From positions 19,175 through 83,174 of IMG/VR virus record IMGVR_UViG_3300042894_004439: 64,000 bases of DNA; one strand, written 5' to 3'. The position numbers and the translations under genes are program-made. This DNA is from a virus. The notes under the pieces were generated by a model. That model had not been told where the DNA came from, did no database searches, and saw only the letters and a list, made by a program, of their open reading frames with translations. Shown one piece after another: positions 49,630 to 53,306 of this stretch. Within the stretch, counting starts at the first letter, position 1. The number at the start of each line of letters is the position of its first letter.

Positions 49630-50607
49630 ATGAAAAAAATACTAGCACTGATACTTGCTACCGCAAGCATGTTAGCACAGGCATGGGAACCAACCAAGCC
49701 AGTACAAGTCTATATCGGTAACACGCCTGGAGCCGGGAACGAAATGGCCTTTAGAAAACTAGCACAGATTGTACAAAAAGAAAATCCTAAATTTGTCTAT
49801 GTTGTACAAAACATTCCCGGAGCAGACTCAGTCATAGCCAACAACCGGTTTTTAGAAGCCACAAACGATGGGCATACCATTAACTTGCCAAGTCACATGA
49901 GCAGTTATGTTACAAATGATATCTGGGAAAAGTCAATTAAGAAATACAACTACGACAGTTTCGTAGATGTGTTGACCATGGGTAAATCACCATTGGTGTT
50001 GGTTGCTAATCCCAAGAGCGGCATTAATACTCCACAGGAGTTTGTGAAGTATATTCAATCTGGTAGAACTATTAGCATTGCTGTAGGCGGTGGAGCACAT
50101 AGAACAGCATTTGAATATTTGATGGACAAAGGTCGAGGCAACAAAGACACAGTCAAACCCATCAAGTTTAACGGACCAATGCCTGCTGTGACCAGCGTGG
50201 CATCATTTGATCCTAAGACAGGAGGAACAGAATTTGGCATCATTCCCATTGCTGTGGCCAAGGCCTTGGTGGATGCAGGCAAAGTCAAACCCATTGGATT
50301 CACTGGTACACGTAAGATGGCACAATTTCCAGAAGTTCCGTTGTTGAACACCATTGCACCTGGGATCAATGTGTATGCGGCTTGGTCAATTCAATTGCCT
50401 CCTGGCACAGACAAGGACATTGTGGCCTGGTATCAACTGCAATTCAGTCGTGCAGTTCGTAGCGCAGAATACAAAGAGTACATGGATGCCAACGTTATAT
50501 TCTACGCAGAAGATGAACTTACTCCTGCAGGATTAAAGCGCAACATGGACGAACTACGTGCTACCTTTTTACCAGTACTGAGTCGAATTGATTTAAGTAA
50601 AGAATGA
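49630..50607 (+). CDS. tctC: Tripartite tricarboxylate transporter substrate-binding protein (TctC/Bug family)
   Basis: Signal peptide, W.PTKPV, N.PGA, DGHT, R...FPEVP, P.GT...V. Confidence 0.85.
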   Translation: MKKILALILATASMLAQAWEPTKPVQVYIGNTPGAGNEMAFRKLAQIVQKENPKFVYVVQNIPGADSVIANNRFLEATNDGHTINLPSHMSSYVTNDIWEKSIKKYNYDSFVDVLTMGKSPLVLVANPKSGINTPQEFVKYIQSGRTISIAVGGGAHRTAFEYLMDKGRGNKDTVKPIKFNGPMPAVTSVASFDPKTGGTEFGIIPIAVAKALVDAGKVKPIGFTGTRKMAQFPEVPLLNTIAPGINVYAAWSIQLPPGTDKDIVAWYQLQFSRAVRSAEYKEYMDANVIFYAEDELTPAGLKRNMDELRATFLPVLSRIDLSKE

Positions 50608-51233
50608 AATATATCTTTGTAGCCGGTGCTCCGGGCTCTAAATGGAGCAGTGTGGTCAAAAACATCTACTATAGTCCTAGCATTGATCGTTCGGACTATA
50701 GAGATGAATGGACCTATTATCATGACGCTTCGGGCACCCGGGAACTAATGCATCTGGGTGCTTACTTTGACCCAGGTATGATTTCTCCCTTGCCCGAAGA
50801 TTTAACAACATTAGATAGAGAACAATTGGAAGAGATATTTGCCGAGCCGTTTCAATTTAAAGAATCCAAGGGTACGCGAATTATCAAAAGCCATGTGTTT
50901 TCAAATCATATTGATTATCTGAGAAAATTGTTCCCCGAAGTGCCCATTGTGATTGTGCATCGCAATGACGATTCGTGCCTGGGCTGGTGGGTAAAATGCG
51001 GGCATTTTGATATCACATATCCTGACTATCATGAGTATTTCAAAGATCTCAAACACATGGCCCAAATCATTCGAAGACAAAATGCTGATATTTTGGCGGC
51101 TTGGTGGAAATACAATGATAAACCTGTAATGGACAATAATCTCCGATTGGCAGCGGCCCTGGGCATAGAACCACCTCCTGCAGAATACACACAAGAATAC
51201 GTAGTAAGCGATATAAGGGTAAAAGTAATATGA
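50604..51233 (+). CDS. Sulfotransferase-like P-loop protein
   Basis: IFVAGAPGSKWS, IIKSH, FP...IVIVHR. Confidence 0.6.
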   Translation: MKYIFVAGAPGSKWSSVVKNIYYSPSIDRSDYRDEWTYYHDASGTRELMHLGAYFDPGMISPLPEDLTTLDREQLEEIFAEPFQFKESKGTRIIKSHVFSNHIDYLRKLFPEVPIVIVHRNDDSCLGWWVKCGHFDITYPDYHEYFKDLKHMAQIIRRQNADILAAWWKYNDKPVMDNNLRLAAALGIEPPPAEYTQEYVVSDIRVKVI

Positions 51234-51889
51234 TAACAGACGAATTTAAAAGCAGTTGGGATTTTACAAAGAGTTACAGTACATATCATTTTGACAGCGT
51301 CAAAATAGATCGATTTGAAGATGTGATTGCACATCTAGGACATATTGAACCCACATGGCAAGCTGATCTTGAAGACATTGTTGCTAACTCAAACCCAGCC
51401 ACTTGGGAAACTCGCGGTTACAAAGGTGAAGGTATTCCTCCTCCGCGTGAAGATTTGTTGGCAGAAGAATATGATATTGAACGGGTAGGCGCTGATCCCA
51501 AAATGATCATCACCCATATCAATTGGCGTATTCCCGATTCGTTGCAAGCAATTACTGCGGCATTTGGCCTAGATGATTGCATGGAACGCATACACGTACA
51601 GCAACCTGGAGAAGTGTGGAACCTACACATAGATAAACTGCAGAAATGGTGCCCTGAAGATCCGTCAAAGATAGGACGTTATTTTGTACAATTAACAGAC
51701 TGGCAACCTGGGCAGTTCTGGGAGTATGGTAATTATCACTGGAACCAATGGCGTGCCGGCGATGTCAGCACATTTGACTGGGCCAACATGCCACACTCTA
51801 CAGCCAATGCTGGCCATTATCCCAGAGTTACATTCCAGTTAACTGGTGTTATTACAGAAAAGACTAAAGCATTTTTAGCCACACTATGA
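51230..51889 (+). CDS. 2OG-Fe(II) oxygenase/cupin-like protein
   Basis: PG....HID...PHSTAN....RVTFQLTG (HxD...H...R). Confidence 0.75.
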   Translation: MITDEFKSSWDFTKSYSTYHFDSVKIDRFEDVIAHLGHIEPTWQADLEDIVANSNPATWETRGYKGEGIPPPREDLLAEEYDIERVGADPKMIITHINWRIPDSLQAITAAFGLDDCMERIHVQQPGEVWNLHIDKLQKWCPEDPSKIGRYFVQLTDWQPGQFWEYGNYHWNQWRAGDVSTFDWANMPHSTANAGHYPRVTFQLTGVITEKTKAFLATL

Positions 51890-52512
51890 AAACTCTATTA
51901 ATCATTACTGGTCCGCAAGGGTCTGGTAATCATTTATGGTCAAAAATCTTTGCGCTACACCCAGATGTGTATGGCTGGCACACCCTGTTACATGAATACT
52001 GGATAGGGCATGATCAAGAACCTTTTGCAGATTGTTGGGCTGATCCCGACGAGTTAAAAGAATTTGACTGGGGTGAATGCAAGTACTTTGTCACAAGTGT
52101 AAGTACTCCGTACATGCTCAACGGTGAACGTACCATACCCAACATTGTGCGTTTTGCTGCCACAGCCCTGGGACTGGGCATACGGGTAAAAATTGCCATC
52201 ATTGGACGTGATCGTAATATATTACAGTATCAAGAGACTCGTGTACGTGGAGAACCCACATTCGATATAGCACTAGCAGAATATGAAAAATTAACAACAT
52301 GGAATCCTGTATTCTTAAGTTATGAATTGTTGCATCTTTATGGTGATCTTTATCTACAACAGCTATCTGATCAATTGGAGTTCCCTATTGATTATTCTAG
52401 TCCCCAACTGGAAAATATTTTACAGGATGATACAAACAGTAAGTACTTTCAACCAGTGACACATCATCCTACAGATGATTTAGCACGACATACTTCAAGG
52501 AAATGGCGATGA
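51886..52512 (+). CDS. Sulfotransferase-like P-loop protein
   Basis: IITGPQGSGNH, IIGRD, LSYELL. Confidence 0.6.
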   Translation: MKTLLIITGPQGSGNHLWSKIFALHPDVYGWHTLLHEYWIGHDQEPFADCWADPDELKEFDWGECKYFVTSVSTPYMLNGERTIPNIVRFAATALGLGIRVKIAIIGRDRNILQYQETRVRGEPTFDIALAEYEKLTTWNPVFLSYELLHLYGDLYLQQLSDQLEFPIDYSSPQLENILQDDTNSKYFQPVTHHPTDDLARHTSRKWR

Positions 52513-53306
52513 CAGCACAACGTATATTAATCATGGGCTTGCCCGGCGCAGGCAAAACATATCTAGCACAGCACATATTAGACCACTTGCAGGCAGAACG
52601 CAAACGTGTGCATTGGCTCAATGCCGACGATGTGCGTAAAGAATACAACGACTGGGACTTTACTGAAGCAGGCCGTATTCGACAGAGTGTGCGTATGCGT
52701 ACACTAGCAGATTCATTCACTGACGTAGACTACGTAATCTGTGACTTTGTTGCACCACTGGTAGAAATGCGCAACAACTTCAAAGCAGACTGGTGTGTGT
52801 GGGTTGACACCATTGACAAAGGTCGTTTTGAAGATACCAACCGAGCGTTTATTCCTCCAGAAGTTTATGACTTCCGTATTACAGAACAAAAGTCAGAGAA
52901 ATGGGGTGAATTCATCGCCGCACACATATTAGATAATAGACGCCGTCCTGTGTTTGATTGGCAACGAGAAACTGTACAGATGCTGGGCCGTTGGCAACCG
53001 TGGCATGCCGGTCATCGTGCGCTGTTTGAACGTGCTATCGCTAAAACTGGACAAGTGGTTATTCAAATACGTGACTGTCAGGGATGGCAAGGTAGTAACC
53101 CGTTTGAAATAGACAAAGTCAAATCATTTATCAAACGTGATTTGGACATGCTATATCAAGGTCAATATGAAATTCAAGTTGTGCCCAACATTGTTAATAT
53201 CACTTACGGTCGAGATGTGGGTTATAAGATTGAACAAGAATCATTTGACGAAAAAACTCATGCTATCAGCGCCACTGAAATTAGAAAACAAATGGGACTC
53301 AAATAA
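52509..53306 (+). CDS. cysC: Adenylylsulfate kinase fused to an HxGH nucleotidyltransferase domain
   Basis: GLPGAGKT, NADDVR, DF...GR; C-terminal GRWQPWHAGH and ISATEIR. Confidence 0.8.
   Translation: MTAQRILIMGLPGAGKTYLAQHILDHLQAERKRVHWLNADDVRKEYNDWDFTEAGRIRQSVRMRTLADSFTDVDYVICDFVAPLVEMRNNFKADWCVWVDTIDKGRFEDTNRAFIPPEVYDFRITEQKSEKWGEFIAAHILDNRRRPVFDWQRETVQMLGRWQPWHAGHRALFERAIAKTGQVVIQIRDCQGWQGSNPFEIDKVKSFIKRDLDMLYQGQYEIQVVPNIVNITYGRDVGYKIEQESFDEKTHAISATEIRKQMGLK

Follow-up and report, generated by a model that had tools for sequence, protein, structure and literature searches.

Do five tightly packed genes of a lake phage encode enzymes that hydroxylate and then sulfate an acceptor, together with a supply of the sulfate donor? 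The genes, here called G, H, I, J and K, occupy positions 49630-53306 on the plus strand of a 64,000-nucleotide stretch of viral DNA (the window), which corresponds to bases 19175-83174 of an 83-kb IMG/VR virus record (IMGVR_UViG_3300042894_004439; CheckV completeness 22%). An initial annotation had read them as a self-contained sulfation operon, consisting of a TctC-type solute binder, two sulfotransferase-like proteins, a 2-oxoglutarate (2OG)-dependent iron oxygenase and a fusion of an adenosine 5'-phosphosulfate (APS) kinase with an HxGH-type transferase. The observation itself is confirmed, and four of these five family calls are supported by the tools that we applied. That the cassette acts as an accessory hydroxylate-then-sulfate module of a ~350-kb lake phage, dependent on 3'-phosphoadenosine 5'-phosphosulfate (PAPS), is a reading whose chances we judge to be about even.

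The phage origin of the DNA is supported. Close relatives have genomes of 342-353 kb, two of them with direct terminal repeats, and the source is therefore a 'jumbo' phage of ~350 kb. DNA of positions 48800-54300 is present in 24 lake-water metagenome runs, at least 22 of which come in addition to the possible source, and none of the listed carriers is an RNA run. Among INPHARED phages, no DNA match to 49000-55600 was found.

All five genes are real open reading frames (ORFs). G (49630-50607, 325 amino acids) encodes a TctC/Bug-family solute-binding protein that is predicted to be exported. It is followed by H (50604-51233, 209 amino acids), a weakly sulfotransferase-like protein with the invariant elements GAPGSKWS, KSH and R120, by I (51230-51889, 219 amino acids), which is called an Fe(II)/2OG-dependent oxygenase at the fold level, and by J (51886-52512, 208 amino acids), a sulfotransferase-fold protein with the atypical loop GPQGSGNH. 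The last gene, K (52503-53306, 267 amino acids), joins an APS-kinase-like domain (residues ~5-140) to an HxGH/ISxTxxR nucleotidyltransferase (residues ~155-267) and is the candidate supplier of PAPS. Overlapping start and stop codons couple G through K translationally. The ATGA overlaps that had been claimed for the whole series are found between G and H (50604), H and I (51230) and I and J (51886); J and K share 10 nt with the K start at 52503, and an ATGA results there only with a K start at the third codon, 52509.

Scans of IMG/VR returned 27 distinct related loci with G, the window's own excluded, and, for K, at least 599 stretches, the best 80 of which were retained. Since the layout recurs in the 27 loci, it is above chance, and the synteny check that had been suggested for the five-gene order came out positive: H, I, J and K are all present in 13 of the 27 loci, and the exact order G-H-I-J-K is kept in 12. 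In 23 loci, K is found no more than 7 kb downstream of G. The most constant first gene of the island is G, which is followed by H, I, J or K in every one of the 27.

The proposed donor supply depends on K. In Pfam searches, the protein matched APS_kinase (PF01583) over residues 8-94 with an E-value of 1.1e-10 (42.1 bits, cut-off 21.1) and CTP_transf_like with an E-value of 0.0012, and it also matched phrog_10255, 'kinase' (E 5.5e-49). A family profile was made from 39 diverse members (32-56% identity). Its N-terminal domain retrieved APS kinases and PAPS synthases from the Protein Data Bank (PDB) with E-values of 2.5e-15 to 8e-9, with other small P-loop kinases from 5e-5; the rows down to 2.5e-12 are APS kinases or PAPS synthases save one adenylate kinase 9 chain (1e-12), and an axonemal chain stands at 9e-11. 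These matches support a domain that is specifically APS-kinase-like and not a generic P-loop kinase. The Walker A lysine, D42, R45, F53 and R58 align with the LDGDxxR and GFS..R motifs of 2yvu, 2pey and 2gks, and D42, F53, R58 and Q61 reach a conservation of at least 90% in the 39 sequences, the first Asp of the motif being Asn in the window phage. We take the (D/N)(G/A)DxxR motif and the Phe and Arg of the APS site to have the roles described for them in the literature.

Invariant residues are found in both domains of K (G12, G17, K18, R45, G162, R163, Q165, H168, H171, G236, R237, G240 and R261). In the C-terminal domain, the motifs GRxQPxHxGH and YGRDVGY are invariant or nearly so and the arginine of the final ISATxIR is invariant; YGRDVGY presumably resembles the GRDHAG loop of sulfurylases. 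The call of an APS kinase/HxGH fusion was thus upheld by Pfam, NCBIfam and the PDB profile. Distant relatives were collected as well, giving 126 loci, 119 of them with a K-type gene. In 12 of the 119, the kinase and the nucleotidyltransferase are adjacent separate genes, sometimes with an ORF of ~70 amino acids between them, which argues that the two domains work together.

Searches of the record and of four relatives with 95-100% completeness found neither a Sat-type ATP sulfurylase (PF01747) nor a member of the PAPS_reduct family (CysD/CysH), while the positive controls were detected in reference genomes. Because the four near-complete relatives lack these families, no PAPS-related gene other than K was found in the phage; each near-complete genome has one copy of K. 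As a separate observation, a second HxGH region lies at 62546-62731, in an open frame of 487 amino acids at the end of the window, and matches the profile of the C-terminal domain of K with an E-value of 5.4e-6. Equivalent matches occur in three relatives, two of these with two in-frame TAA codons.

J provides the best structural evidence for a user of the donor. No Pfam (including PF13469 and PF00685), NCBIfam or PHROG family matched it, and its profile reached PDB sequences with an E-value of 0.39 or weaker. A comparison by hhalign with a bona fide phage sulfotransferase family gave a probability of 84% (E 7.8e-6, 106 columns). An AlphaFold2 (AF2) model of J (pLDDT 87.3) was aligned to known structures with VIA-align, and the first 12 rows are all sulfotransferases (Z 11.6-9.0, root-mean-square deviation 3.0-3.8, 157-172 residues). 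Tyrosylprotein sulfotransferase (TPST) 2 and an olefin-synthase sulfotransferase domain lead the list (Z 11.6), followed by further TPSTs, NDST, 3-OST, SULT7A1 and Stf9, and the top 12 also include an Alicyclobacillus sulfotransferase and Stf1. Kinases do not enter the list before Z 8.9, so that the top sulfotransferases stand ~2.7 Z above the kinases. In Foldseek, seven of the seven matches at E <= 0.001 are sulfotransferases, with SULT7A1 and TPST1 on top (E 3e-4). Furthermore, R108 and D109 are invariant and align with the V-R-D of the phage sulfotransferase family, its 3'-phosphate-binding RD motif. The model comparisons and hhalign together support a sulfotransferase fold for this second P-loop protein, as opposed to a nucleotide kinase, and hence the original call. 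J is present in one copy per near-complete genome.

For I, no Pfam, PHROG or NCBIfam match was obtained, and the comparison of its profile with the PDB was uninformative (Tll0404, unrelated, E 0.008; AtsK, E 0.8-1.1). The protein collection holds 1812 homologues, and the 120 best that were listed are all unnamed or 'hypothetical protein' and have no Pfam domain. An AF2 model built from 18 homologues (pLDDT 71.3, pTM 0.74; residues 168-177 and 184-186 below 50) gave VIA-align matches of Z 8.3-5.9 over model residues ~25-211, and, going by their entry titles, Fe(II)/2OG oxygenases make up most of the 50 rows listed. As a Z of ~8 is near the background stated for the tool, the call rests on the uniform match list together with an invariant triad. 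In Foldseek, the best match is a non-haem hydroxylase (E 7e-3, probability 0.97) with no match at E <= 0.001, and the listed rows are mostly 2OG oxygenases or cupins. H133, D135, H189 and R199 are invariant in the 18 homologues, down to 34% identity; H133, D135 and H189 would form the iron triad, and R199 would be the basic residue that holds the 2OG carboxylate. The modelled fold and the invariant HxD...H...R thus support a Fe(II)/2OG oxygenase with a double-stranded beta-helix fold, in agreement with the initial annotation.

Which acceptor would these enzymes modify? The same chemistry could act on a protein or a glycan, such as a virion fibre, a secreted protein or peptide or an envelope polymer, with the TctC gene being a separate moron in the island. 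The logic of collagen prolyl hydroxylase combined with tyrosyl or carbohydrate sulfotransferases, and RaxST/RaxX, are analogues of such a scheme. We consider it unlikely. The best fold rows of I include proline 3-hydroxylase (Z 8.3), prolyl hydroxylases (8.1 and 7.9) and a chlorovirus collagen prolyl hydroxylase (8.0), and TPSTs take the top rows of J (Z 11.6, 11.4 and 11.3), tied with the olefin-synthase domain. VIA-align rows that differ by Z < 1 are ties, however, and small-molecule oxygenases and sulfotransferases score nearly the same as the protein-modifying ones for both proteins. In 10 of 79 close loci, the gene immediately upstream of K is a bona fide sulfotransferase (Sulfotransfer_3, E 7e-19; Sulfotransfer_1, E 9e-11), and this gene often follows proteins with an Lcl_C (Legionella collagen-like) domain or RCC1 repeats in these related phages, which fits a protein acceptor, as does the position of the cassette beside lysis genes (a GH19-like endolysin gene at 56117-56734). 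In the cassette itself there is no collagen-like or fibre gene, the sole G-X-Y run of the window being at 3394-4101, and a protein or glycan acceptor leaves unexplained why G is the constant first gene. Iyer et al. (2010) proposed collagen-like or tail-collar proteins as the substrates of comparable bacterial operons (PMC2938197), and this proposal keeps the protein or glycan acceptor alive as a rival.

G is the gene that would connect the cassette to a small molecule. It matches PF03401 over profile positions 3-241 of 274 with an E-value of 3.7e-19 (69.7 bits, cut-off 27; 69.1 bits in the genome search), and the profile of 20 G homologues retrieved 11 PDB chains, all of them binders of the tripartite tricarboxylate transporter (TTT)/Bug type (E 4e-25 to 8e-16), so that Pfam and PDB profile both support the TctC assignment. 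The N-terminus, MKKILALILATASMLAQA|WEP, is hydrophobic, ends in AQA|WEP and is kept in the 20 homologues; read from the sequence, it is a putative Sec signal peptide, and G is predicted to be exported. Like the known binders BugD (2f5x), Bug27 (2qpq), AdpC (5oei), the terephthalate-binding TBP (8hka) and 7ndr, G is a PF03401 protein that aligns over ~260 residues and has an apparent N-terminal export signal. It differs from them as a phage-encoded orphan, and the usual 'PF..GG..D' stretch reads 'GN.PGAGNE' in its phage family. The initial statement that the window lacks TctA and TctB was correct and can be extended, since neither TctA (PF01970) nor TctB (PF07331) was found in the record or in the four near-complete relatives, which carry one to three TctC genes each. 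Orphan Bug genes are common in bacteria, and the missing partners are therefore no bar to family membership. G is usable only with membrane parts of the host. The simplest link to the enzymes would be the uptake of the acceptor or its precursor.

The analysis thus shows the order of the genes, their translational coupling, the family or fold of G, I, J and K and a conservation that extends to related phages. From these observations, we infer as follows which activities the enzymes have, that they share PAPS as cofactor, that hydroxylation precedes sulfation, what the acceptor is and how G relates to the enzymes. The N-terminal domain of K would phosphorylate APS to PAPS, a step that we grade as likely. 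APS might be made from sulfate and ATP by the small C-terminal adenylyltransferase, which is speculative; otherwise it would be supplied by CysDN of the host. I, as a cytoplasmic Fe(II)/2OG oxygenase, would put a hydroxyl group on the acceptor, and J, and probably also H, would move sulfate from PAPS onto hydroxyl groups, while the divergently transcribed gene e may add a methyl group. A peripheral and weaker part of the scheme is that exported G, together with TctA and TctB of the host, would take up a carboxylate serving as acceptor or as precursor of the acceptor. In a bolder version, which we think improbable as a whole, the C-terminal domain of K would be an undescribed, minimal ATP sulfurylase, so that K by itself would convert sulfate and ATP to PAPS, and the orphan TctC would hijack TctAB of the host, importing a carboxylate that is turned during infection into a hydroxylated, twice sulfated and methylated metabolite specific to the phage.

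Several results weigh against the hydroxylate-then-sulfate reading, and those on K concern both of its domains. The N-terminal domain aligns only with positions 5-93 of the 152 of PF01583, K scores 29 bits against the APS kinase equivalog TIGR00455 (cut-off 138.7), and the lid of the kinase appears to be shortened, as we read the alignment and the known motifs. The C-terminal domain is closest to archaeal nicotinamide mononucleotide adenylyltransferase (NMNAT; E 2e-11) and NadM (3e-10). PF01747 is not among the Pfam matches of K and is absent from the five records searched. The Sat chains 1i2d, 1m8p, 2gks and 3cr8 were matched by the K profile only via their kinase-type domains, and a comparison of the C-terminal domain with Sat gave one non-significant local alignment over HxxH (score -3.0). 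The claim of a self-contained PAPS pathway was therefore not sustained: the HxGH domain is NMNAT-like and has no significant similarity to Sat, and sulfate adenylylation by K would have to be assumed. By sequence, K is a trimmed APS kinase fused to a minimal (~110 amino acids) NMNAT-like adenylyltransferase.

The genomic contexts of K weigh in the same direction. K is 82-91% identical across the best 80 stretches and its neighbouring genes differ completely. The cassette, as judged by the TctC-like G on the fetched stretches, is absent from 52 of the 79 close K loci. A sub-lineage of about a dozen loci has K flanked by a stand-alone cytidylyltransferase-like gene (PF01467, E 1.7e-12) on one side and QueD/PTPS (E 8.7e-16) on the other, with GTP cyclohydrolase I (FolE, E 1.8e-61) encoded two to three genes upstream of K; this neighbourhood looks like 7-deazaguanine synthesis. 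Among the distant relatives, sulfotransferases were detected with a hidden Markov model (HMM) of one phage sulfotransferase family, and all of the following counts are lower bounds. One is adjacent to the fused form in 1 of 56 loci and present anywhere in 6 of 56, and the split pairs of kinase and transferase have none in their 12 loci. The kinase-only relatives of K speak for the reading, with a sulfotransferase next to them in 11 of 44 loci and anywhere in the locus in 21 of 44, as do the 10 close loci with a bona fide sulfotransferase upstream of K. The weak association of the fusion with sulfotransferases counts against the simple reading even as a lower bound.

With at least 599 stretches and many contexts, K is not specific to this operon; it is clade-wide, and we therefore see the cassette as an island of variable content that has docked on this gene. 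This raises the possibility that there is no single pathway. K would then be a core gene of the clade with a role of its own, for instance in nucleotide- or NAD-related metabolism as an NMNAT-like enzyme joined to a 3'-kinase, and G, H, I and J would be unrelated accessory genes in a variable island, as compact phage genomes overlap their genes regardless of function. The changing neighbours of K, the NMNAT-like C-terminal domain, the QueD and FolE contexts and the rarity of sulfotransferases near distant fusions fit this explanation, and so does the content of the island, which among the G loci varies between HIJK, HIK, JK, HJI, IJK and HK. Its difficulties lie partly in K itself. The N-terminal domain is APS-kinase-specific and keeps the positions that contact the substrate, and the NMNAT similarity is incomplete: K reaches 24.8 bits against TIGR01527 (cut-off 181.2) and 27.3 against PRK01153 (cut-off 127), with only residues 160-228 aligned, and the PDB matches cover residues 3-82 of NMNAT chains of 168-181, the alignment ending after ~70 residues of the C-terminal domain. 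The NMN-binding part of NMNAT presumably has no counterpart in K. K and its kinase-only relatives also stand repeatedly beside bona fide sulfotransferases, sulfotransferase-fold proteins need a source of PAPS and no other is encoded, and in 23 of the 27 loci the island ends with K. On balance, we hold this explanation to be unlikely.

One IMG/VR contig of 524,565 bp has two copies of K ~390 kb apart, one in a G-H-J-I-K island and the other in the FolE/cytidylyltransferase/QueD context. Given relatives of ~345 kb, it may represent two joined genomes of related phages or a larger lineage with two K genes.

The remaining objections to the hydroxylate-then-sulfate reading concern H, J and G. H matches Sulfotransfer_3 (PF13469) just above the cut-off (E 1.9e-6, 28.7 bits, cut-off 27) and over residues 58-176 only. 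In the genome search, one of five orthologues passed the cut-off (27.9 bits), and the four from near-complete relatives remained below it at 19.8-25.2 bits. Most of the nearest clusters of H in the Atlas are viral and have no common Pfam family, Sulfotransfer_3 occurring in 32% of the members at rank 21 and in 70% at rank 28. A comparison of H with phage sulfotransferases by hhalign was negative (probability 1.6%), and its profile found in the PDB only a de novo design at E 0.1. What stands of the sulfotransferase-like call for H is therefore a borderline Pfam match, which was not backed by four of the orthologues or by the profile-profile and PDB searches. H and J are unrelated in a profile-profile comparison (probability 0.3%), and an iterative HMM search in a pool of 3840 ORFs from all loci linked them neither to bona fide sulfotransferases nor to each other. 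In the hhalign alignment, GPQGSGNH of J pairs with GLPRSGST, which places Gly12 at the position of the Arg. We take this Arg/Lys of the 5'-phosphosulfate loop (PxxGS/T-T) to be catalytic in sulfotransferases. The Walker Lys position of J is N15, so there is no Walker Lys either; Q11, N15 and H16 are invariant and could stand in for the missing Arg/Lys. G, finally, is tied to the enzymes by position alone.

If H and J were catalytically dead or re-purposed, as binders or as kinases or transferases with another donor, the island might modify DNA or nucleotides in the manner of phage hypermodification. The lack of both the Walker Lys and the sulfotransferase Arg/Lys in J, the unusual loop GAPGSKWS of H and the outcome of the family scans, which give J no name and H a borderline one, are compatible with this, as are AlkB-type nucleic-acid oxygenases among the fold rows of I (Z 6.6-7.2) and the 7-deazaguanine pathway genes near K in some relatives. 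An exported TctC protein, as predicted for G, misfits DNA chemistry, however; the island has no DNA-binding or glycosyltransferase genes, the fold match of J spans the 3'-phosphate RD motif with its invariant R108 and D109, and no TET/JBP-like signal stands out for I. We regard a role in DNA or nucleotide modification as very improbable.

How does the proposed sulfation module compare with known systems? NodPQ/NodH and RaxPQ/RaxST are bacterial sulfation loci with their own PAPS supply, and the cassette shares with them that a donor-making enzyme is co-encoded with sulfotransferases. It differs from such loci in being phage-borne, in having the miniature K instead of CysDN/CysC or Sat and in starting with an orphan TctC gene; moreover, its sulfotransferase-fold proteins are divergent, with no Pfam match for J and a borderline one for H. 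Iyer et al. (2010) predicted the same co-encoding in bacteria, in operons that bring together dioxygenases of the beta-hydroxylase type, sulfotransferases, PAPS synthetases and methyltransferases and in which sulfation would come after hydroxylation (PMC2938197). The 2OG dioxygenase, the methyltransferase and the order of the two reactions proposed here have counterparts in those operons, whereas tail-collar or collagen-like substrate genes are missing from the island. Overall, the interpretation of the cassette as a sulfation locus with its own donor supply, of a kind known from bacteria, is partly supported.

The closest enzymes to K are the PAPS synthases and Sat-CysC fusions (human PAPSS1, 1x6v/2ofx; Aquifex aeolicus, 2gks), which likewise unite an APS-kinase-type domain with an adenylyltransferase of the HxGH superfamily. 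The family profile of K aligns with their kinase domains at E 1e-13 to 4e-13, and human PAPSS1 has the same order of kinase and transferase. These proteins comprise 546-630 amino acids compared to 267 in K, whose transferase of ~110 amino acids is NMNAT-like without PF01747 and whose lid appears shortened. Phage cysC genes (adenylylsulfate kinase, K00860) have been annotated in freshwater viromes and large freshwater phages and are filed there under assimilatory sulfate reduction (PMC9611531; bioRxiv 10.1101/2020.02.13.942896). K would receive the same label. In the window phage and its relatives, however, K sits with sulfotransferase-type genes and no PAPS reductase is encoded, which points to sulfation rather than sulfur assimilation. 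In the literature outside subscription journals, we found no description of a phage APS-kinase/nucleotidyltransferase fusion or of a phage TctC-sulfotransferase cassette, and the titles and abstract openings of articles on phage TctC or tripartite tricarboxylate systems mention no phage-encoded TctC.

The genes that flank the cassette were part of the initial annotation as well. Upstream on the minus strand lies e (48135-48860), a 'probable' class I methyltransferase dependent on S-adenosylmethionine (SAM). It is divergent from G in 24 of the 27 loci, and in the other three, G is at most 1.3 kb from the start of the fetched stretch. The VLDVGCG motif I of e (D112, G114, G116) is invariant in 21 homologues. 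There is no Pfam match; the best family matches are CmoB in NCBIfam (E 0.03-0.046) and, in the PDB, the class I methyltransferases CFA synthase (E 0.28) and PMT (E 0.55). The divergent SAM methyltransferase thus holds as a real ORF with an invariant motif, with weak support for the family (E 0.03-0.55). Further upstream, b (46283-46903) and c (46836-47423) always precede the island; they have no Pfam match, b has a Gln-rich tail, and their identity is 60-79% in most relatives and goes down to 38-53% in a few.

Between e and the cassette lies f (49000-49617, plus strand), a protein of 205 amino acids with the N-terminal glycine-rich loop FAPALGGNH and no Pfam, PHROG or NCBIfam family. Its end is 12 nt from the start of G, on the same strand, and f may be part of the operon unit G-K, possibly as its first gene, in the window phage only; a homologue was found in only one related locus. 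f is a full-length paralogue of the ORF at 26560-27132 on the plus strand (BLASTP E 4e-11). Aligned with J by hhalign, f matched in the N-terminal loop only (E 0.0098, probability 4%), and the profile-profile comparison of the 26560 ORF with J was negative. Three plus-strand ORFs for proteins of ~190-240 amino acids, at 26560-27132, 49000-49617 and 23975-24694, share such a loop (FAPGLGGNH, FAPALGGNH and FPPGAGGNW), the last of them having only the loop in common with the other two, and no Pfam family covers the trio. The FAPALGGNH-type loop resembles GPQGSGNH of J; the profile comparisons did not support homology to J.

The intergenic region of e and f contains a palindrome of 31 nt (48892-48922) with a 14-pair stem that is terminator-like on the minus strand, possibly a bidirectional terminator or a regulatory hairpin. 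Between 47400 and 56200, terminator-like sites (6, with 6.0 expected from shuffling) and sigma-70-like promoters (35, with 32.6 expected) showed no excess, so that the palindrome counts as a site and not as a sign of function. No copy of the T4 late-promoter consensus TATAAATA is present in the window.

On the downstream side, l (53358-54260, plus strand) had been called SGNH-like. The ORF is there, and homologues follow K in several related loci; its match to Lipase_GDSL_2 is weak (E 0.0014) and, at 19.5 bits, under the cut-off of 32.9, with NCBIfam GDSL models at E 0.014-0.016. N-termini of the GDSL/SGNH type (FGDSF.., FGSS.., IGDGF.., FGCSF..) are also seen in ORFs at 17748-18509, 28150-28776 (minus strand), 29882-30592, 45576-46286 and 47456-48184. 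The family matches of these SGNH-like ORFs, to DUF6071 and Lipase_GDSL_2, are weak and both under their cut-offs. The window phage seems to carry an expanded family of such proteins.

The convergent gene m (54263-55540, minus strand), annotated as another sulfotransferase-like gene, encodes 374-425 amino acids, the conserved start in the homologue alignment being an internal Met. Pfam, hhalign against phage sulfotransferases and the PDB profile (ribosomal S20, E 0.15) were all negative, so that nothing but the N-terminal motif TPDxVGSTLL is left of this call. Beyond m lie a protein of 207 amino acids with an N-terminal hydrophobic stretch (55497-56120, plus strand) and the putative endolysin (56117-56734, plus strand), which is GH19 (chitinase class I)-like at E 7.9e-5 and 23 bits (cut-off 25.5); both are kept beside the island in relatives. 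A gene for a PhoH-like protein, often carried by phages as an auxiliary gene, lies ~5 kb upstream of the island at 44031-44765 on the minus strand (PF02562, E 1.7e-69).

A search of genome contigs with the G profile returned one locus, a 42.9-kb contig of the same phage clade in a metagenome-assembled genome (MAG) of Haliscomenobacter sp. (Bacteroidota). The island is complete on this contig (b, c, e, G, H, I, J, l, K, l, m), with identities of 33-79%. Whether mis-binned phage DNA or a hint at the host, the contig is weak and possibly artefactual as host evidence.

If the hydroxylate-then-sulfate reading is right, giant lake phages would carry 'cysC' to feed their own sulfotransferases and not for sulfur assimilation, and viruses would be drivers of sulfation in freshwater bacteria. 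No PAPS-making enzyme smaller than the K fusion would be known, and the tiny adenylyltransferase of K could represent a new class of ATP sulfurylase. The orphan TctC would make the phage a rare case of a virus that supplies only the substrate-capturing part of a host transporter. Should even the bolder pathway hold, it would amount to a complete virus-encoded biosynthesis of a small molecule with its own uptake receptor and cofactor supply. The island is common, as seen from its 27 distinct loci, at least 599 stretches with K and 1812 oxygenase homologues, which makes these ideas easy to test by expression.

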